Below are positions 3,112 to 45,854 of a stretch of 45,854 nucleotides of DNA, one piece after another. The stretch's first letter is position 1; each line of letters begins with the position of its first letter. This DNA is from Faecousia sp. GTDB lineage: Bacteria > Bacillota > Clostridia > Oscillospirales > Oscillospiraceae. The stretch spans positions 1 to 45,854 of the forward strand of contig JAZNJN010000022.1 in NCBI GenBank assembly GCA_045578025.1, written 5' to 3'. The notes below the pieces were generated by a model, which saw only the letters and a program-made list of their open reading frames with translations, was not told the origin of the DNA and did not search any database. The position numbers and the translations under genes are program-made.

Positions 3112-3322
3112 CCATATATCCCGCTTTGGCCGTGCATACCCGATTATGACCTGCACCAAAAGGCAGGTGGGTCGCCGCTCCATACCATAACTGCTCCCAA
3201 CGTCCGCTTACACGCATAGGTCATAAGCGGGAGGTCTGCAAACCGGCAGGGAAATCAAGCATCCCTATTAATAAATGTGGGTCCAAAAGGGCACGTCACG
3301 CACCAAGCAGGAGGTATATGCC
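3112..3322 (-). ncRNA. ssrS: 6S RNA (SsrS)
   Basis: About 210 nt without a credible CDS. The ends pair into a long closing stem (GCATATAC-CTCCTGCTTGGTGCGTG ... CACGGCCAAAGCGGGATATATGGC). Clostridial 6S-like blocks are present (GGACCCACATTTATTAATAGGG; CCCACCTGCC...GCAGGTC), followed by a terminator. Recognised by eye; needs an Rfam check. Confidence 0.72.
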
Positions 3323-34890: not shown

Positions 34891-35349
34891 TTACATATCC
34901 ATAGCTGGATTCATATAGTATACGTTTTTCTGATTCAGCCGCTCCCGGAGCTGCTGGATGGACTCGCCAAACCGCTGGAAGTGAACGACCTCCCGTTCCC
35001 GGAGGAACTTGATCACATCGTTCACATCCGGGTCATCGGAAAGGCGGAGGATGTTGTCGTAGGTGACTCTGGCTTTCTGCTCTGCAGCAAGATCCTCGGT
35101 CAGGTCTGCAATCGGGTCGCCCTTGACCTGCATGGTTGCTGCAGTCCACGGCGTTCCGGATGCGAAGGTGGGATATACGCCAACAGTATGATCCACAAAA
35201 TACTGCTCAAGCGGCGTGCCGACAATATCTTTATCCTTCAAGTTCCGGGTAAGCTGATGCACCAGAGCGCCTACCATTTCAAGGTGCCCCAACTCTTCTA
35301 CGCCGATATCGGTCAGCAATCCCTTTTGTTCACCGGTTGGTACAGCATA
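34891..35349 (-). pseudogene. cotJC: 3' portion of split cotJC (manganese catalase family spore-coat protein); 5' end absent
   Basis: YAVPTGEQKGLLTDIGVEELGHLEMVG...YFVDHT...GDPIADLTEDLAAEQKARVTYDN...FLREREVVHFQRFGE match CotJC from roughly residue 45-50 onward. The N-terminal YEKKLQYPV...QYGGPDGE segment is missing, and similarity stops 10 nt from the recombinase stop codon. Confidence 0.88.
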
Positions 35350-35359
35350 TAAATCGGAA

Positions 35360-36853
35360 TCAGATCTTCCAATCGATCTGAATTTCATTCTCGGAAAGAG
35401 TAATCTTATCCATCAAAGCATTACATACGGTCATTTTATCTTCCAGAACGAGTTCGGGCCATTTAGAAATATAGTTGCTGATTGCCCCTAAAGCCGGTAA
35501 CTTTCTCTCATATTTCCGTAATCTTTCGATGTATCGTGTCCGCTCTTCATCGAGAGCGGTCGCCTTTGCGCTAAGTGACGCCATCAATATACCGCTTGCT
35601 ACCATTGCCTTTTGCGTTGTAAGGTCAATTTCATGCTCCAGTTGTGCGATCCTCGTCTTTAATTGCAGGACTTGAGGATCAGAGGTATTCTCCCGCGGCG
35701 CTGTCAGTGCAGGAAATTGCTCCAGCTTTCTTTTTATCTGTTCAAAAATCAACGATTCTATTTCGTCTGCTTTCAAGCCGTGAATTCCGTCACATTGGTT
35801 GCCGCTCTGCGCCGCCTTGGAACAAATCAAGTATCGGAAGGCTTTTCCGTTTGATTTTACTGTCTTTTGCACAACGATGGCATAACCGCATCGACTGCAT
35901 TTCAGCTTTCCTGCAAGCCATGTGTTTTTTACTTTCTTTTGCCGAACTGCTCCGTCTGCGTTTCTTTGTTTTCTTCTGCAACGAAGCCAAATATCCGAGG
36001 AGATCAACCCTTGATGGGGCGCAATTACCAAATATTGTGCATTTTCCTTATCGGAGTAGAGATAGCATCCGTTTGTGCCGATAAAATCCTCAGGAGGATT
36101 GTAGATCACCGTACCACTCTCCTTGAAATAATCATAGACTGCAAGGTCTGCTTTGACATATGCAGGATTCCTCAGCATCCTTCCTATGTGAGTTCTATTC
36201 CATGTACCGTTTTCCTTTCTGGGATGGCGAATACCGGCATCCTGCAGCGCATTGACCACATCACCCATAGATGTATAGGGTTTTTGATAGATATCGTACA
36301 TGAATTCCAGAATCCCGGCTTCTTCCTCATTGACAATATACCGGGTTGTCTTTTTCCCCTCCAAAAAGTATGGTTCGGTGGAAAAACCGAAGGGTATTTT
36401 TCCGCCCATAAAAAATCCTCGTTTAGATCTTGAATGGTACGCATCGAAGACGCGCTGCTGGATGGTTTCCCGTTCCAGCTGTGCAAAGACAATGCAGATA
36501 TTCAGCATTGCCCGCCCCATAGGGGAGGAGGTGTCAAATTTTTCTGTGCAGGATACAAACTCCACTCCGTATTTTTGAAATTCCTCCATTAAATTGGCAA
36601 AGTCCAGTATAGAGCGGCTGCATCGATCCAGCTTGTAACAAATGACCCGGCAGATCTCACCGTTTCTGATGGCCAACAGCATTTTCTGAAACTCCGGACG
36701 CTCTGTATTTTTACCGCTGTAGCCTTTGTCTTGATAAATGCGGTAGGGGTTACCTCGTGTTTCGTACCTGCAAAGCTCAATTTGACTTTCAATGGAGATA
36801 CTGTCTGCCTTGTCAACAGACTGTCTTGCGTAAATGGCATCTTCTCTTATCAT
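35360..36853 (-). CDS. Large serine recombinase (resolvase + recombinase + Zn-ribbon domains)
   Basis: AIYARQS catalytic Ser, DKGYSGKNTERP, KLDRCSR, FAQLERE, CSRCG...C...C zinc ribbon, coiled coil; intact 497 aa. Confidence 0.95.
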   Translation of the reverse strand: MIREDAIYARQSVDKADSISIESQIELCRYETRGNPYRIYQDKGYSGKNTERPEFQKMLLAIRNGEICRVICYKLDRCSRSILDFANLMEEFQKYGVEFVSCTEKFDTSSPMGRAMLNICIVFAQLERETIQQRVFDAYHSRSKRGFFMGGKIPFGFSTEPYFLEGKKTTRYIVNEEEAGILEFMYDIYQKPYTSMGDVVNALQDAGIRHPRKENGTWNRTHIGRMLRNPAYVKADLAVYDYFKESGTVIYNPPEDFIGTNGCYLYSDKENAQYLVIAPHQGLISSDIWLRCRRKQRNADGAVRQKKVKNTWLAGKLKCSRCGYAIVVQKTVKSNGKAFRYLICSKAAQSGNQCDGIHGLKADEIESLIFEQIKRKLEQFPALTAPRENTSDPQVLQLKTRIAQLEHEIDLTTQKAMVASGILMASLSAKATALDEERTRYIERLRKYERKLPALGAISNYISKWPELVLEDKMTVCNALMDKITLSENEIQIDWKI

Positions 36854-37049: not shown

Positions 37050-39563
37050 TTATTCGCGGCTATTTCCGGCAGTATCCGCGCCGTCGCCGGTGAGATTCAG
37101 CCGTTTTGCTGCGTCCTCACGCATTTTGTACTTGAGGACTTTGCCTGCAGCATTCATGGGGAAGCCCTCTACAAATTCGATGTAGCGGGGGACTTTGTGC
37201 CGGGCCATGCTGGCCTTGATGTAATCGATCATCTCCTCAACGGTGATGCTGCCCGGCTCTTTCAAAATGATGGACGCCAGAATCTCTTCGCCGTACTTTT
37301 TATCCGGTACGCCAATGACCTGCACATCCTTCACACCGGGATGGGTATAGATGAATTCTTCGATCTCCTTAGGATAGATATTCTCACCGCCGCGGATGAT
37401 CATGTCCTTAAGCCGCCCTGTGATTCGGTATGTGCCATCCACATCCTTGCAGGCCAGATCGCCGGAATGAAGCCAACCCTCTGCATCCACAGTAGAACGG
37501 GTAGCCTCGGGCATTTTGTAATAGCCCTTCATGGTGTTGTAGCCACGGGAGCAGAATTCACCGTTCACCCCCGGAGCGACTTCCTCACCGGTCTCCGGGT
37601 CAATGACCTTACATTCCACATGGGGAAAATCATAACCAACGGTATTCGTGCGCAGATCCAGAGGATCTGTCCATGCGGACATTGTGGAGCCGGGGGAGGA
37701 TTCCGTCTGTCCGTAAACGCTGACGATGCCCCGCATATTCATCTCATCAGGCTGCGCGGCACGGCGCATCAGCTCGGGAGGACAACCTGCACCCGCCATG
37801 ATGCCGGTCCGCATATAGGAAAAGTCAGTCTTGCGGTAATCGGGGTGATTGAACATGGCGATAAACATGGTGGGTACGCCGTTAAAGCAGGTGATCCGCT
37901 CCTGATTGATGCAGGCAAGGCTGGATTTGGCAGAGAAATAGGGCAGGGGGCAGAGGGTGGCGCCGTGGGTCATGGAGGAGGTCATACTCAGCACCATGCC
38001 GAAGCAGTGGAACATGGGGACTTGGATCATCATCCGATCCGCGGTGCTCAGACCCATTCTGTCGCCGATGCACTTGCCGTTGTTGACCACATTATAGTGA
38101 GTGAGCATCACGCCCTTGGGGAAGCCCGTCGTGCCGGAGGTATACTGCATGTTGCAGACATCGTCGGGGCGAACATTGGCAGCCAAGCGGTAAACTTCTT
38201 CTTTGGGAACAAGATCTGCCCGGGCCATGGCTTCTTCAAAGGTCAAACAGCCGGGCTGTTTAAAGTCTACCGTTATCACATTCCGCAGGAAGGGGAGCTT
38301 CTTGCAGTGCAGGGGAGTGCCAGCCTTGCTGTTTGCGATCTCAGGGCAGATCTCGTTAATGATGTTCTTGTAGTTGGAATCCAAGGCAGATTCGATCATC
38401 ACAAGGGTATGGGTATCCGACTGCCGGAGCAGGTACTCCGCCTCGTGAATTTTATAGGCCGTGTTCACAGTTACCAGAACAGCACCGATCTTTGTAGTCG
38501 CCCAGAAGGTGATATACCAGGCAGGAACATTGGTCGCCCAGATGGCCACCTTCATGCCGGGGCGTACGCCCAGAGAGACCAACGCCCGGGCAAAATTATC
38601 CACATCCTCCCGGAACTGCTCATAAGTACGGGTGTAATCCAGAGTCGTATACTTGAACGCATACTGATCCGGGAATTCCGCCACCATTCTGTCCAGCACC
38701 TGGGGGAAAGTAAGGTCGATGAGACTGTCTTTCTTCCAGACATACTGACCCGTACCGTCATGGTTGTAGTAAAGGGATTTCTTTCTGCTCCGGGTGCTGC
38801 CGAAGCGGCTCATGTAGTTGACAAAATGGGGGAAGATAATCTCTTTGTCCTGCAAATCCCGCATCCATTCCGGCTTCCATTCCAAGGAAACAAAGCCGTC
38901 ATAGTTGATGGAAGAAAGGGCAAGGATCATATCGCCCACCGGCAATGTGCCCTCGCCGATCAAATTGTAGGTATGATCGTCATTGGAGTCCCGCAGGTGG
39001 ACATGCTTCACATAGGTACCCAGATTCTTAATGGTGGTATCTGCAGACTCTCCAAAATCCCGGTAGGGATGGTGCATATCCCAAAGAGCGCCCAGCCAGT
39101 CACTGGCAAAGCTTTCCAGCATCTTACGCAACCGTGCGGTATCTGCATAGATGCCGCTGGTTTTAATGAGCAGGGGAATGCCAATCTCCTCCGCTGCGGC
39201 AACAATGGCAGTTAAGTTTTCCGCAACCTGGGCTTCATTATCATGGAGGGCGCAGGCAACCACGTAGGGGACACGGGCATCGTAGGCCACCTGCATCAGA
39301 TCTTTTAACGTCTGTACACAGGCAGTACCATCAGACAGGTCAAGAGAAGTATCAAAGCAGGGGATCCTCAACTTCAGATCCCGCATTTGCCGGACTGTCG
39401 CCGCCACCTTATGCTTATGAAAAGGTCCGCCCCTTTCAAGCATGGGGTCGAATTTCGGCAGATTATAGACTTCAACGCCCTGAAAACCCATATCCAGTGC
39501 GGTTTGAAGTACATCATCCCAGCTTAGATCCGACCAGCCACGGGTAGAAAAGGAGAGTTTCAT
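37050..39563 (-). CDS. Fusion of a xylose-isomerase-like TIM barrel and an AMP-forming acyl-CoA synthetase
   Basis: N-terminal ~255 aa: FSTRGW, GFQGVEV, WDMHH, HVHLRD, GFVSLEW. C-terminal ANL motifs: QYTSGTTGFPKG, YGQTE, WLHSGD, RLKDMIIRGGENIYP, GKV. Confidence 0.88.
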   Translation of the reverse strand: MKLSFSTRGWSDLSWDDVLQTALDMGFQGVEVYNLPKFDPMLERGGPFHKHKVAATVRQMRDLKLRIPCFDTSLDLSDGTACVQTLKDLMQVAYDARVPYVVACALHDNEAQVAENLTAIVAAAEEIGIPLLIKTSGIYADTARLRKMLESFASDWLGALWDMHHPYRDFGESADTTIKNLGTYVKHVHLRDSNDDHTYNLIGEGTLPVGDMILALSSINYDGFVSLEWKPEWMRDLQDKEIIFPHFVNYMSRFGSTRSRKKSLYYNHDGTGQYVWKKDSLIDLTFPQVLDRMVAEFPDQYAFKYTTLDYTRTYEQFREDVDNFARALVSLGVRPGMKVAIWATNVPAWYITFWATTKIGAVLVTVNTAYKIHEAEYLLRQSDTHTLVMIESALDSNYKNIINEICPEIANSKAGTPLHCKKLPFLRNVITVDFKQPGCLTFEEAMARADLVPKEEVYRLAANVRPDDVCNMQYTSGTTGFPKGVMLTHYNVVNNGKCIGDRMGLSTADRMMIQVPMFHCFGMVLSMTSSMTHGATLCPLPYFSAKSSLACINQERITCFNGVPTMFIAMFNHPDYRKTDFSYMRTGIMAGAGCPPELMRRAAQPDEMNMRGIVSVYGQTESSPGSTMSAWTDPLDLRTNTVGYDFPHVECKVIDPETGEEVAPGVNGEFCSRGYNTMKGYYKMPEATRSTVDAEGWLHSGDLACKDVDGTYRITGRLKDMIIRGGENIYPKEIEEFIYTHPGVKDVQVIGVPDKKYGEEILASIILKEPGSITVEEMIDYIKASMARHKVPRYIEFVEGFPMNAAGKVLKYKMREDAAKRLNLTGDGADTAGNSRE

Positions 39564-40972
39564 GCTTCATCCTCCTCGTATACGATCTTATTGAGTGCGC
39601 TGATGTAGGCGCGAATACTGGCACCCACGATGTCCGTGGAAATGCCCTTGCCGGAATAGAGCTTTCCACCGGAACGGAGCTTTACGATGGTCTGACCCAT
39701 TGCGCCGCGGCCCTCGGTAACGGACTGGATCTGGAAATCGTCCAGCTCATAATGCTGACCGGTGATGCTTTCAATTGCGAGGAAAGCGGCATCAATAGGG
39801 CCGTCACCGATGCTCACACCCTCCAGAGTGCTGCCGCCTTTTTTAAGCTTCAAATGAGCGGTAGAGGAGATGGTGTTTCCGGAGGTGATCACATAGGTAT
39901 CCAGTACGTAGGTTGCCGGCACCTGCATAGCAGCAGAGGCAACAATGGCATCCAGTTCCTTGTCAGACACCTTTTCTTTCTTGGCAGCAATTGCCTGGAA
40001 GGCTTCATAAACTTTTTTGCCGTCCTCTTCGGAAAGATCATATCCCAGACGGTCTACCGCCTTCAAAACGCCGCTGAGGTCATCGTGAGCGGTGAGATAG
40101 ATGCCAGAATCCTCATCCCGGACACCGTTGTCAAAGGGAGAGCTCTTGCTGCGCACGGTCTGGCACATCCAGGAAATCTGATTGACTGTGCGGCTGAGCT
40201 GTGTTGCATTGACAGAGCAAGCTGCTCCCATGCTGTCACCCCGCATATGGATCACCCGGGAGATATTCTCCAGAGATGCGGCGTTCATACTGAAGGCGGC
40301 AGCTTTCACTTCGGATGCGCCCTGACCGATGGATGCGATCACACAGGCATCTGCCATTGCCATGGCATTGGAGCAGGAAATGCCCAAATTGACATTCGCC
40401 AGTTCCGGTACACTAAGATTCAAATTCTGTACAAATTCTGCAAACTCAACCGGCAGCATCGTACCGGCAGTATCGCAGATTGTTACAGTGGTAGCACCGG
40501 CGCTGACAGCGACAGAAATGGCCTGTGTCAAAAATGCAGTGTCGCTGCGGGTCGCATCGTCTGCGATAAACTCTACATCCGGGCAAAGCGCCTTGCAGGC
40601 CGCCACAGTTTCCTTGATCGCAGCCAGCATAGCCTCTGGCTTCTTGTGGAGGAAATACTCCATCTGCACAGAGCTGGTAGGAGCGCAGACCTGCAGACGG
40701 GGTTTCTTTGCATATTGCAGTGCATTCCATGTGGTTTCCACACTATCTGCAGTAAGCTGTACGGGAACGGCAATGGTACTTCCATTGACTACAGACGCAA
40801 TGGATTTGATCTGCAGAGCGTCGATCTTCTCGTTGCGGATGCCAACCAGTTCAATCACAGATACACCCAGCTTATCCAAAAGCTTGGCCATCTCGATCTT
40901 CTCCTTAAAAGAAAGGGAGAACACACCGTCTGCCTGCTTTAAGGTTACATCGCTGATATGGATCGTCTTCAT
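39560..40972 (-). CDS. 2-isopropylmalate synthase (LeuA)-like protein with degenerate catalytic barrel and intact C-terminal regulatory domain
   Basis: LeuA-like scaffold (EKIEMAKLLDKLGVSVIE, DATRSD, DTAG) and regulatory domain (GDGPIDAAF, QSVTEGRGAMG, STDIVGASIRAYISALN). The RDGEQ, HCH and GERAGN motifs are absent. Confidence 0.82.
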   Translation of the reverse strand: MKTIHISDVTLKQADGVFSLSFKEKIEMAKLLDKLGVSVIELVGIRNEKIDALQIKSIASVVNGSTIAVPVQLTADSVETTWNALQYAKKPRLQVCAPTSSVQMEYFLHKKPEAMLAAIKETVAACKALCPDVEFIADDATRSDTAFLTQAISVAVSAGATTVTICDTAGTMLPVEFAEFVQNLNLSVPELANVNLGISCSNAMAMADACVIASIGQGASEVKAAAFSMNAASLENISRVIHMRGDSMGAACSVNATQLSRTVNQISWMCQTVRSKSSPFDNGVRDEDSGIYLTAHDDLSGVLKAVDRLGYDLSEEDGKKVYEAFQAIAAKKEKVSDKELDAIVASAAMQVPATYVLDTYVITSGNTISSTAHLKLKKGGSTLEGVSIGDGPIDAAFLAIESITGQHYELDDFQIQSVTEGRGAMGQTIVKLRSGGKLYSGKGISTDIVGASIRAYISALNKIVYEEDEA

Positions 40973-40999
40973 AATTATTCCTCCTGCAGCATAAAAATC

Positions 41000-41268
41000 A
41001 AAAATAAAATCCCTGAGGTCTCGTTGACCTCAGGGACGAATATACAATCCGCGGTACCACCCTGATTATTTCTCCAAAGAGAAATCACTTCAGACTCCAA
41101 CAAGTCCTATCCCGTAACGGGGGAGACCGGGTCCCATTACTGACAAGAGCGTTCACAGGACCGACTCGGGAAGCAGAGCATCCAATCAAGCTGCGCAGGC
41201 TCACACCGGCCGCCTGCTCTCTGGAACAGTATCTGATAGGACACGTTTTCCGTCAATGTCTTTTACAA
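41000..41268 (-). promoter_or_regulatory. T-box riboswitch leader, predicted Leu (CUG specifier)
   Basis: AGAGA and GGTGTGA Stem I motifs; specifier loop t-CTG-c (41174-41176); AGTA in Stem II; CCGTTA; AATCAGGGTGGTACCGCG T-box; terminator 41001-41036. Confidence 0.88.
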
Positions 41269-41278
41269 TATTGCAACC

Positions 41279-41307
41279 ATTAAAGCATAAACCCGCTGTT
41301 TTGTCAA
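41279..41307 (-). promoter_or_regulatory. Sigma-A promoter of the Leu T-box operon
   Basis: TTGACA-N17-TTTAAT with extended TG. Confidence 0.78.
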
Positions 41308-41398
41308 TGAAAATCCGGAAAAGAGCATTCAGTCATTTTGCACAAAATTCGATAGCGTACCGTCAATATTTTCCACCATGTCTTTTGGAGGAAAATAT

Positions 41399-41427
41399 TT
41401 GACTTTTTCTCGCGGACATGTTACAGT
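41399..41427 (+). promoter_or_regulatory. Sigma-A promoter of the Ile T-box gene
   Basis: TTGACT-N17-TACAGT with extended TG. Confidence 0.7.
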
Positions 41428-41437
41428 ATCTGCAATA

Positions 41438-41696
41438 CAAAAAGGCACTGACGAAGACGGTAAGATTTGCAGGTCATTCAGAGAGCCGGCGGGTGGTGTG
41501 AGCCGGATGAATGCGATCTAAATACCCATCCCTTCTGAGCCGGAGGACTGAACGAAATGGCTAGTAGGTTTCTCCCGTATGCCTGCGTTAAAGGATAGGA
41601 CTTATTCGGGTCTGAAGGGGCGGCTTTTGCCGCAATTTGAGTGGTACCGCGGGTTTTTGCTCGTCTCAAGCTTTCAGCTTGGGACTTTTTTATTTT
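41438..41696 (+). promoter_or_regulatory. T-box riboswitch leader, predicted Ile (AUC specifier)
   Basis: AGAGA and GGTGTGA motifs; specifier loop c-ATC-c (41528-41530); AGTA; GCGTTA; AATTTGAGTGGTACCGCG; terminator 41663-41696. Confidence 0.9.
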
Positions 41697-41715
41697 CCGG
41701 GAAAGGATGAACGTT

Positions 41716-43983
<2,268 letters not shown>

Positions 43984-43992
43984 CAACAGATA

Positions 43993-44021
43993 TTGACAAT
44001 TTTATCGTATAATGGTATAAT
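43993..44021 (+). promoter_or_regulatory. Consensus sigma-A promoter of the Val T-box gene
   Basis: TTGACA-N17-TATAAT with extended TG. Confidence 0.88.
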
Positions 44022-44029
44022 CCCATGAA

Positions 44030-44308
44030 GTAAAAGGCATTGATGGAGAAATCCTTTTTGCAGGTCTGTCTCAGAGAAATGGCGGTTGGTGCAAGCCATG
44101 GCAGAGGCAAAGAGAATGTGGCTCCGGAGCCGGGAGAAAGAAAGCGAAAGCAAGTAGAATCTCTCCGCGTCAGCTGCGTAAGTGCTCAGGGTGATTCCAC
44201 CCGTTAAGTGGTATCTGCTGTGAGGCGGATGCAATTTGAGTGGTACCGCGGGTTGTTTCGGCAGCTCGTCTCAAGGGATTATCTTTGAGGCGGGCTGCCT
44301 TTATTTTT
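44030..44308 (+). promoter_or_regulatory. T-box riboswitch leader, predicted Val (GUG specifier)
   Basis: AGAGA and GGTGCAA motifs; specifier GTG-g (44118-44120) before the CTCC/GGAG stem; AGTA; CCGTTA; AATTTGAGTGGTACCGCG; terminator 44260-44308. Confidence 0.88.
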
Positions 44309-44329
44309 AAGTAACCGGAGGTACATGTT

Positions 44330-45854
44330 ATGGAACAGATTACCGGAATTACATATCAGATCAAAGAAACGGCCAGAAGAATCCGGGAGCTTCGGGAGAT
44401 CACCGGACTTACCGTGGAAGAAATGGCCAAGCGAACGGATCTGAGTGTAGAAGAATACATAGAATGTGAAAACGGCAACAGAAACTTAAGCATAGCCTTC
44501 CTGTATCGCTGTACCTTAAGCTTTGGCGTTGATATGGGTGACCTTTTGGAAGGTCGCAGCCCCAAGCTTCAGACCTATGCTCTGACAAGAAAGGGAGAGG
44601 GTCAGCGAATCGAAGAAGCCCATCACATGATCGGCTATAACCTCGCTGCCGGTTTCCGTAATCGTATCGCGCTGCCCCTTTATATGGAGCTGGTTTATCG
44701 CTCCGGCGCCGAATACGAGGATATCGAACTGGTGACTCACGAGGGACAGGAATGCGACATCGTCATTCGCGGCAGCATGCGGATCCAGATCGGCGAGAAG
44801 ACGGAGATCCTTCACGCCGGCGACTGCATCTATTACGATTCCTCCATTCCTCATGGTATGATCGCGGTCAACGGTGACGACTGCGCTTTCTATGCCGTTG
44901 TGCTGAGCAACTCTGCCGCCCGTGAAGGGGAACAGGCAGCTGCTGTTGCCACTATGCCGGAGATCAAGACTACTCCGGATACCCAAAAACGTATTTATCG
45001 GAACTTTATCACCCCCACGCTGGGTGACAATCGTCAGCTGGAAAAAATTGAATTCCAGAACGAAGAAAAGTTCAACTTTGCTTTTGATATCGTGGATGCT
45101 CTGGGTCGCAGCAAGCCCGAAAAGCTGGCCATGCTGCACTTGAGCGAAGACGGCACGGAACGCCGGTTTACCTTCCAGGATATGAAGAAGGAGTCTGCAA
45201 GAGCGGCAAACTACTTCAAATCTCTGGGCATCAAGCGGGGCGACCGGGTCATGCTGGTATTAAAACGGCATTACCAGTTCTGGTTTGCCATTCTCGGTCT
45301 GCATAAGCTGGGCGCTATCGTCATTCCGGCGACCAATCAGCTTCAGGAAAAGGATTTCTCCTACCGGTTTGAAGCCGCCAATGTCAAGGCAATCCTTTGC
45401 ACCGCCGACGGCATTGTGGCAGATGCCGTGGAAGATGCCGCAGCAAAATGTCCCTGTCTGACAACAAAGATCCTGGTCGGTGGCAGTAGGGAAGGGTGGC
45501 ACGATTTCAACGAGGAATACCCTCTGTTCAGCAGCCACTACGCAAGGGCAGCGGATGCTCCCTGCGGCTCTGATCCCATGCTGATGTTCTTTACCTCCGG
45601 CACCTCCGGCTATCCCAAGCTGGCTGCCCATAACTATAAGTACCCTCTGGGTCATTTCATCACCGCAAAATACTGGCACCAGGTCAACCCCGACGGCCTG
45701 CACCTGACCATCTCCGACACCGGCTGGGGCAAGGCTCTCTGGGGCAAGCTCTACGGCCAGTGGATGAGCGAATGCGCCGTCTTTGTCTACGACTTCGACC
45801 GCTTTGACCCGGCAGACATCCTGCCCCTCTTTGCCAAATATAATATCACCAGCC
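44330..45854 (+). CDS. Second XRE-HTH/cupin-fused acyl-CoA synthetase (partial, runs off the window)
   Basis: Not in the ORF track (no stop in window). Own translation: MEQITGITYQIKETARRIRELRE...THEGQECD...PHGM...NYFKSLGIKRGDRVMLVLKRHYQFW...FTSGTSGYPK...GWGKALWGKLYGQW; GGAGG RBS; paralogue of 41716-43983. Confidence 0.9.
   Translation, partial: MEQITGITYQIKETARRIRELREITGLTVEEMAKRTDLSVEEYIECENGNRNLSIAFLYRCTLSFGVDMGDLLEGRSPKLQTYALTRKGEGQRIEEAHHMIGYNLAAGFRNRIALPLYMELVYRSGAEYEDIELVTHEGQECDIVIRGSMRIQIGEKTEILHAGDCIYYDSSIPHGMIAVNGDDCAFYAVVLSNSAAREGEQAAAVATMPEIKTTPDTQKRIYRNFITPTLGDNRQLEKIEFQNEEKFNFAFDIVDALGRSKPEKLAMLHLSEDGTERRFTFQDMKKESARAANYFKSLGIKRGDRVMLVLKRHYQFWFAILGLHKLGAIVIPATNQLQEKDFSYRFEAANVKAILCTADGIVADAVEDAAAKCPCLTTKILVGGSREGWHDFNEEYPLFSSHYARAADAPCGSDPMLMFFTSGTSGYPKLAAHNYKYPLGHFITAKYWHQVNPDGLHLTISDTGWGKALWGKLYGQWMSECAVFVYDFDRFDPADILPLFAKYNITS

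Follow-up and report, generated by a model that had tools for sequence, protein, structure and literature searches.

T-box-controlled acyl-CoA ligases of Faecousia sp.: a probable salvage locus from branched-chain acids to leucine, isoleucine and valine

It was already known in the 1960s that anaerobes of the rumen and gut make leucine, isoleucine and valine from branched volatile fatty acids, and this ability is the basis of isoacid supplements. Allison and colleagues are said to have described the reductive carboxylation of these acids in rumen anaerobes between 1962 and 1971. For aryl acids, a route is known that comprises the phenylacetate-CoA ligase PaaK, an ACT protein and an indolepyruvate oxidoreductase. 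In T-box leaders, the uncharged cognate tRNA stabilises the antiterminator, which leads to read-through. The accessible parts of two accounts (PMC7356843, PMC2812497) describe how rumen anaerobes convert branched volatile fatty acids to leucine, isoleucine and valine by reductive carboxylation. Among the ligases of such acids, MacsMa of Methanosarcina acetivorans prefers 2-methylbutyrate and adenylates a broad range of acids, according to the available text (PMC10455477). MbcS of Staphylococcus aureus accepts 2-methylbutyrate and isobutyrate and uses isovalerate poorly, again according to the part available (PMC10026030). Here, we describe a locus at positions 37,050 to 45,854 of a Faecousia sp. 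contig (JAZNJN010000022.1). The whole stretch of 45,854 nucleotides that was analysed is called the window. Three units of the locus each encode an AMP-binding ligase downstream of a T-box, and the T-boxes read leucine, isoleucine and valine. We consider it likely that these units are induced by starvation and belong to a salvage route that turns isovalerate, 2-methylbutyrate and isobutyrate into these three amino acids.

T-boxes were called with the Rfam covariance model RF00230 (gathering threshold 93 bits). The leaders, their elements and the genes behind them are as follows.

41029-41265, minus strand: Leu T-box leader (RF00230, 114.3 bits)
41174-41176, minus strand: Leu specifier CUG (CTG in DNA)
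41009-41037, minus strand: terminator stem of the Leu leader
41279-41307, minus strand: promoter-like site of the Leu operon, TTGACA-17-TTTAAT with TG, read by eye
39560-40972, minus strand: LeuA homologue, 470 aa, HMGL-like and LeuA_dimer domains, first gene after the Leu box
37050-39563, minus strand: fusion of a TIM barrel and an AMP-forming acyl-CoA ligase, 837 aa, AP_endonuc_2 and AMP-binding domains, second gene
41439-41671, plus strand: Ile T-box leader (RF00230, 100.9 bits)
41528-41530, plus strand: Ile specifier AUC (ATC in DNA)
41663-41685, plus strand: terminator stem of the Ile leader
41399-41427, plus strand: promoter-like site of the Ile unit, 9/12 with TG, consensus scanner
41716-43986, plus strand: Ile ligase, XRE-HTH, cupin and MacsMa-like acyl-CoA ligase, 756 aa
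44031-44276, plus strand: Val T-box leader (RF00230, 98.7 bits)
44118-44120, plus strand: Val specifier GUG (GTG in DNA)
44260-44299, plus strand: terminator stem of the Val leader
43993-44021, plus strand: consensus promoter of the Val unit, 12/12 with TG, consensus scanner
44330-45854, plus strand: Val ligase, XRE-HTH, cupin and MacsMa-like acyl-CoA ligase, truncated by the contig end

All three leaders exceeded the gathering threshold (E ≤ 1.2e-20), as expected from a preliminary description of this DNA that had been made from the letters alone. Re-reading returned the three codons it had given, each one base ahead of the basal Stem I helix. The antiterminator bulge was UGGU in all leaders, and an intrinsic terminator overlapped each antiterminator. 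Compared with shuffled sequences, the 3' leader segments had folding z values of -3.9, -3.8 and -5.1; Stem I was no better than shuffles in single-sequence folding (z 0.17, 0.55 and -1.33). The consensus promoter scanner gave no call for the Leu site. The preliminary description had spoken of three units of promoter, T-box and ligase. Three units with a ligase each were indeed found, but the LeuA homologue that comes first after the Leu box had been overlooked.

The specifier was conserved at the amino-acid level in orthologous leaders. We examined 90 T-box-like leaders from the window and from fetched loci under a fixed register rule with a 4-bp helix. Ahead of the LeuA homologue, CUG or CUC was read in 36 of 40 leaders; the remaining four comprised one mis-pairing (CUC by eye), one CCC and two without a call. 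All 20 leaders ahead of the first ligase clade (Ile) read AUC. Among 22 more divergent ligases, GUA, GUC or GUG stood ahead of 19 and AUC ahead of three. The latter three form a clade of their own, and the leaders of the Val clade read GUA, GUC or GUG throughout (19/19). A second set of 80 further loci, which may overlap with the first, gave Leu in 45 of 47 leaders, and the other 47 included 30 Ile and 14 Val. At one locus (L109, 10972, minus strand; genome G146), the T-box ahead of the LeuA homologue reads CCC (Pro) where relatives have CUC, which is a variant or a sequence error.

How firmly the codons can be read depends on the register. When the helix was extended, the Ile and Val readings did not change and Leu was read in 34 of 41 boxes. 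The others of the 41 (three Ser, one Arg, one Pro and two without a call) tell against the Leu assignment. The fixed rule reads four Phe boxes of relatives as Ser; extending the helix corrects these and shifts three Leu boxes. Reading the Leu boxes in other registers, or the Val boxes in the +1 register, gave inconsistent codons, with stop codons among them. At the Ile boxes, the +1 register was constantly Ser as well (20 of 20 relatives), and hence the Ile call hangs on the register rule. The rule held at the ileS-like T-box of the same genome. Of the other seven T-boxes of this genome, four read Tyr, Thr, Ile and Cys ahead of matching synthetase-like genes, which were identified by inspecting their translations by eye, and three were uncalled. 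The preliminary description had also argued that the UGGU bulge excludes other registers. This was borne out for Cys, as the cysS-like T-box of this genome has UGGA. As proof against Trp, the bulge had to be rejected, because the trpB-like T-box (UGG, by eye) has UGGU too. The four Phe-reading boxes likewise carry UGGU.

The Ile ligase had MacsMa as its closest solved relative (PDB 3etc, E 6e-183), and the alignment retained the YHTGD adenylation motif, the Trp equivalent to Trp259 and GWGK. Its best NCBIfam match was MbcS (NF047394), with 427.7 of 850 bits and thus below the equivalog cut-off. No solved relative of the XRE-cupin module was found at E ≤ 0.001. In a quick tree of the ligase domain only, for which 42 of 47 rows were long enough, one branch separated 19 Ile-box from 17 Val-box ligases (Shimodaira-Hasegawa-like approximate likelihood ratio test, 98). 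The clades also differ in the variable residue of GW[G/A]K. It corresponds to Gly255 of MacsMa, four residues before Trp259, which we take to be a site in the substrate pocket. MacsMa numbering was set from YHTGD at 431-435 (PMC10455477). All 22 Ile-clade ligases have Gly, and 21 of the 22 Val-clade ligases have Ala, as do all eight additional close relatives from the Val clade. When specifier and residue were tabulated for the 47 loci of the second set, there were 29 Ile-Gly and 14 Val-Ala combinations, with neither Ile-Ala nor Val-Gly. Wherever the residue could be read at an Ile or Val box (43 of 43), it agreed with the specifier. The residues following the GFGQ motif were clade-specific, too. 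Specifier, protein clade and candidate pocket residue co-vary. Since Ala adds a methyl group, it would suit an acid that is one carbon shorter. The Ile-box ligase is a predicted 2-methylbutyrate-CoA ligase and the Val-box ligase a predicted isobutyrate-CoA ligase.

Judged from these sequences, a strict assignment of one acid to each ligase is only slightly favoured. The same salvage route could also run with Ile and Val ligases that are broad and overlapping. The T-boxes would then label regulation and not substrate, and the paralogues would add a second starvation input and drive the shared oxidoreductase operon described below. We rate this as a serious possibility, somewhat short of an even chance. 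The published ranges of MbcS, which takes both 2-methylbutyrate and isobutyrate (PMC10026030, in part), and of MacsMa (PMC10455477, in part) are in line with it, as is the 69% identity of the two ligase domains of the window over the portion present. Moreover, the Val ligase of the window itself carries the Ile-type Gly (codon 45728-45730), being the sole exception among 30 Val-clade ligases examined. Loci with a single Ile-box ligase ahead of the oxidoreductase were common (about a dozen of 80), which means that one enzyme may serve both acids. No T-box stood ahead of 3 of 22 Val-clade ligases, and none was detected for four of eight more ligases of this clade (one at a contig end). These last three observations tell against the main reading. 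Broad ligases, on the other hand, would hardly explain why the Ile and Val clades stay separate across many families, why Gly or Ala tracks the specifier in every readable case and why the residues after GFGQ are specific to the clade.

The preliminary description had reported no oxidoreductase or aminotransferase gene in the window, and we found none among the 32 open reading frames of the window that were scanned. A search of the genome did find the expected 2-oxoacid:ferredoxin oxidoreductase of the VOR type on another contig, C82. The gene order there is ligase C-terminus, P-loop protein, ferredoxin (VOR delta), alpha, beta, gamma and leucine dehydrogenase. The alpha subunit belongs to the VorB family (NF005507, 545 bits against a cut-off of 399), and its neighbours matched the beta, gamma and delta models, each below the cut-off. 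The leucine dehydrogenase homologue (E 7.5e-102; PF02812 and PF00208) had leucine dehydrogenases or Glu/Leu/Phe/Val dehydrogenases as its top five solved matches. No promoter-like sites were found by a scan inside the block, and a terminator follows it. We infer that the truncated Val ligase continues on C82. Close relatives that bear leucine dehydrogenase had an unbroken order from Val ligase to leucine dehydrogenase on one contig in 8 of the 9 regions examined. More distant relatives showed the same order after the Val ligase, with IlvE replacing leucine dehydrogenase.

The link from the window to C82 is drawn from synteny, which counts against the main reading. Only a fraction of 0.05-0.08 of the words was present in the sequencing runs, and four runs yielded only short pieces from relatives. 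The aminating step of the preliminary description is supported in so far as an aminating enzyme is linked to the Val ligase; in this genome, a leucine dehydrogenase takes the place of the transaminase. Within the genus, leucine dehydrogenase was detected in 13 of 120 genomes. Genomes with leucine dehydrogenase seldom had a class-IV aminotransferase (2 of 15), and the others mostly did (7 of 8); many of these genomes are incomplete. Should the window and C82 indeed be contiguous, the common trunk lies behind the Val box, and only the entry steps are separately controlled. The preliminary description had called each ligase an individually regulated entry step; the shared trunk would not be independent and seems to depend on the Val box. 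Nearly all clusters contain a P-loop protein of 233 aa that matches CbiA/ParA weakly (for example L077, 10625-11335, minus strand), usually just before the ferredoxin subunit of the oxidoreductase. It is possibly an Fe-S or assembly factor.

The phyletic pattern was determined in 150 genomes of the order that were at least 95% complete (gene search at E ≤ 1e-20, yeast-type LeuA left unscored). The LeuA homologue of the Leu operon, which lacks the catalytic motifs and is called dead LeuA below, was present in 36 genomes. Among these, ilvC was found in 3, leuB in 2, VorB in 34 and two or more MacsMa-type ligases in 33. In the 114 genomes without dead LeuA, the counts were 72 for ilvC, 82 for leuB and 66 for VorB. 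Similarly, ilvC was present in 13 of 73 genomes with at least two ligases versus 62 of 77 with fewer. As ilvC is absent from 33 of 36 dead-LeuA genomes, many genomes that are now classed as auxotrophic for branched-chain amino acids may be acid-dependent prototrophs. Loci of this family are widespread and number at least 593 in GTDB representatives. Among the matches listed, the nearest relatives were metagenome-assembled genomes of Faecousia and other Oscillospiraceae, many from animal gut, and homologues were found in other phyla.

Some of these counts fit a replacement of de novo synthesis less well. A homologue of the Leu ligase was present in 86 of the 150 genomes, 32 of which have leuB. 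It is therefore not confined to genomes without the de novo route. Conversely, it was missing from 12 of 66 genomes without leuB. The genomes are also related, so that the contingency counts overstate their independence. In the genome of the window, neither ilvC, ilvD, a class-IV aminotransferase (ilvE) nor an above-cut-off leuB was found. As this genome is 73% complete, the missing ilvC, ilvD and ilvE prove nothing on their own.

The salvage proposal of the preliminary description is strengthened by the linkage to oxidoreductase and aminating enzyme, by the loss of ilvC and leuB, by the kinship with MacsMa and by the covariation of specifier, clade and residue. The idea of strictly one acid per ligase, which was part of it, is weakened by the Gly of the window's Val ligase. 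Alternatively, the ligases could chiefly feed branched acyl-CoA primers to membrane fatty acid synthesis, and the T-boxes would take a lack of amino acids as a sign that primers are short. This role has been published for S. aureus MbcS (PMC10026030, in the part available), which is the best, though below-cut-off, NCBIfam match (428 of 850 bits). It would require neither the linkage to oxidoreductase and aminating enzyme, nor the loss of ilvC and leuB, nor a partner of the leucine-binding type. We regard it as improbable as the main function; primer supply may be a side use of the ligases.

The Leu branch is built differently. Its ligase belongs to another family than the Ile and Val ligases, and the poor use of isovalerate by MbcS fits a Leu branch with an unrelated ligase. 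The best NCBIfam match of the TIM-barrel ligase was PRK12583, below the cut-off. Its solved relatives are generic and gave no hint of the substrate. From its place behind the Leu box, it is a predicted isovalerate-CoA ligase. The start codon of the ligase overlaps the stop of the LeuA homologue, and by script the ligase directly followed the LeuA homologue in 77 of 78 loci. Its N-terminal domain is a xylose-isomerase-like barrel with inconsistent metal ligands. At what we take to be the E/D/H/E metal-ligand positions, E was found in 32, D in 21, H in 24 and E in 22 of 45 AP_endonuc_2 barrels.

The LeuA homologue scored below the cut-offs of the LeuA families. Neither the catalytic motif T-x-RDG nor the metal ligands H-x-H occurred in any of 46 homologues, whereas the regulatory G-x-G-P motif was kept in all 46. 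The allosteric domain PF08502 was matched with E 2.4e-32, and the regulatory domain was better conserved (0.76) than the barrel (0.53). The protein is apparently a pseudoenzyme retained as a metabolite sensor. These same figures bear on the idea that it is an active enzyme with a new chemistry on the acyl-CoA of its neighbour, which would make the Leu operon a different pathway. Its predicted structure is a full LeuA fold that resembles LeuA structures and is modelled with confidence (predicted local distance difference test, pLDDT, 88.9), some barrel residues are invariant and the coupling to the ligase is almost complete. With the catalytic and metal motifs gone throughout and the barrel less conserved than the regulatory domain, we nevertheless judge an active enzyme to be quite improbable.

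In complex prediction, dead LeuA and the TIM domain of the ligase scored 0.38 compared with 0.00 for the best control. The runs shared at least 56% of contacts, and the pLDDT of the partners was at least 80. The mark for this score was reached by 116 of 157 solved pairs versus 2 of 215 mismatched pairs; over the mark but at 0.60 or under, there were only 18 solved pairs and both mismatches. The models thereby give weak support to a pairing of dead LeuA with the TIM domain. A catalytically dead LeuA that binds leucine and feedback-regulates the TIM-fused ligase is plausible from the sequences, if a little short of probable. Against it, the TIM-fused ligase was found without dead LeuA in 23 genomes, and the partner is therefore not obligatory.

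Further variants of the Leu branch were seen. Genome G111 has only a Leu box, dead LeuA and the TIM-barrel ligase, followed by a 1167-aa single-chain pyruvate-oxidoreductase-like gene (L083, 9218-16967). In this Leu-only version, ilvC was present and matches to leuB and MacsMa-type ligases were absent. In Bacteroidota and Eggerthellaceae (L215, L223, L225, L194, L173 and L174), dead LeuA and the TIM-barrel ligase occurred with no T-box detected and no convincing Leu-rich leader peptide seen at these six loci. In 15 of the 150 genomes, a long LeuA-like gene was retained and no leuB exceeded the cut-off; all 15 have a homologue of the Leu ligase elsewhere. Ten of them were examined (L113-L122): both catalytic motifs were clear in nine, and one was ambiguous. 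Long LeuA without leuB is possibly a stage before the pseudoenzyme. An intact LeuA adjoining the ligase in leuB-less genomes was unsupported, as no ligase mapped within the ten fetched regions.

Taken as a mechanism, a shortage of leucine, isoleucine or valine would leave the cognate tRNA uncharged and cause the matching ligase to be transcribed. The ligase would convert the acid with ATP and CoA to the acyl-CoA. The VOR-type oxidoreductase of C82 would then carboxylate the acyl-CoA reductively to the 2-oxoacid, using reduced ferredoxin, and leucine dehydrogenase (in most relatives IlvE) would aminate it. Transcription of the shared trunk would occur downstream of the Val ligase, and the route as a whole would take the place of ilv/leu synthesis de novo. 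The opposite direction, an amino-acid fermentation from amino acid via 2-oxoacid and acyl-CoA to the acid, is very improbable: leucine dehydrogenase, IlvE and VOR can work in both directions and frequently serve catabolism, but induction by uncharged tRNA would destroy a scarce amino acid, AMP-forming ligases run towards activation and the genomes mostly lack de novo synthesis.

In the salvage reading, it is speculative that the XRE-cupin modules feedback-regulate the Ile and Val ligases as dead LeuA may do for the Leu ligase. The most complete version would be a full three-branch replacement. Each acid-specific ligase would have a tRNA sensor of its own to turn it on and an amino-acid-binding module of its own to turn it off; the modules would be dead LeuA docked on the dead TIM barrel of the ligase for Leu and XRE-cupin for Ile and Val. 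One Gly/Ala change would set 2-methylbutyrate versus isobutyrate, and within this lineage IlvE would be displaced by leucine dehydrogenase, which would let the route fix ammonia directly as well. With all its parts together, we find this version rather unlikely.

Other features of the window were as follows.

35360-36853, minus strand: large serine recombinase (Resolvase, Recombinase and zinc ribbon), directly downstream of the TIM-barrel ligase
34891-35388: gene of the Mn-catalase family, after the large serine recombinase
3114-3316, minus strand: 6S RNA, above the Rfam threshold (59 bits)

A parallel was found for phenylalanine. In four relatives (L054, 6559-8446; L102; L103; L104), a Phe-reading (UUC) T-box stands ahead of a PaaK-like phenylacetate-CoA ligase; the one of the four ligases that was scanned in full was below the PaaK cut-off. 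In L054, an ACT-pair gene is present as well, and the unit adjoins the dead-LeuA operon. It is likely a parallel salvage of aryl acids; the logic is the same, and the ligase comes from a family whose substrate is known.

Full-text literature searches returned no T-box-controlled acyl-CoA ligases, although the Ile branch may be anticipated in T-box surveys outside their reach. Vitreschak 2008 reportedly may mention Ile T-boxes ahead of genes for a fatty-acid-CoA ligase and a 2-oxoacid oxidoreductase. No acyl-CoA ligases under T-box control were found in the searched parts of the text and supplements of Wels 2008 or in the available portion of the C. difficile T-box table.

Compared with known systems, the leaders share Stem I, a specifier, an antiterminator with UGGN and a terminator that competes with it, as well as a cognate codon one base ahead of the basal helix, with other Firmicutes T-boxes (RF00230), which stand, for example, ahead of tRNA synthetases and leuA. 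The difference is in the regulated genes, which here are acyl-CoA ligases. Unlike MacsMa and MbcS, the Ile and Val ligases are fused to XRE-HTH and cupin domains, doubled into two clades, under T-box control and linked to VOR. Short bacterial LeuA (TIGR00973; PDB 3ewb, 3rmj and the leucine-bound 3fig) shares the TIM barrel, the C-terminal allosteric domain and Leu T-box control with the homologue described here. The latter has lost the catalytic and metal motifs (46/46), is about 45 aa shorter and is coupled to a ligase in genomes from which leuB is mostly absent. The aryl-acid route has the logic of ligase, sensor partner and oxidoreductase in common with this locus, but its ligase families are others, and the putative sensor here is dead LeuA or XRE-cupin instead of ACT. 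The proposed chemistry is that of rumen reductive carboxylation. The accounts of the latter name no ligase genes or regulation in their accessible parts (PMC7356843, PMC2812497), and the locus supplies candidates that are labelled by amino acid. The T-box specifiers predict substrates for otherwise generic 'AMP-binding proteins', which makes these genes testable candidates for the entry enzymes of the rumen salvage pathway and for its regulation. The physiology, the T-boxes and the enzyme families were already known.

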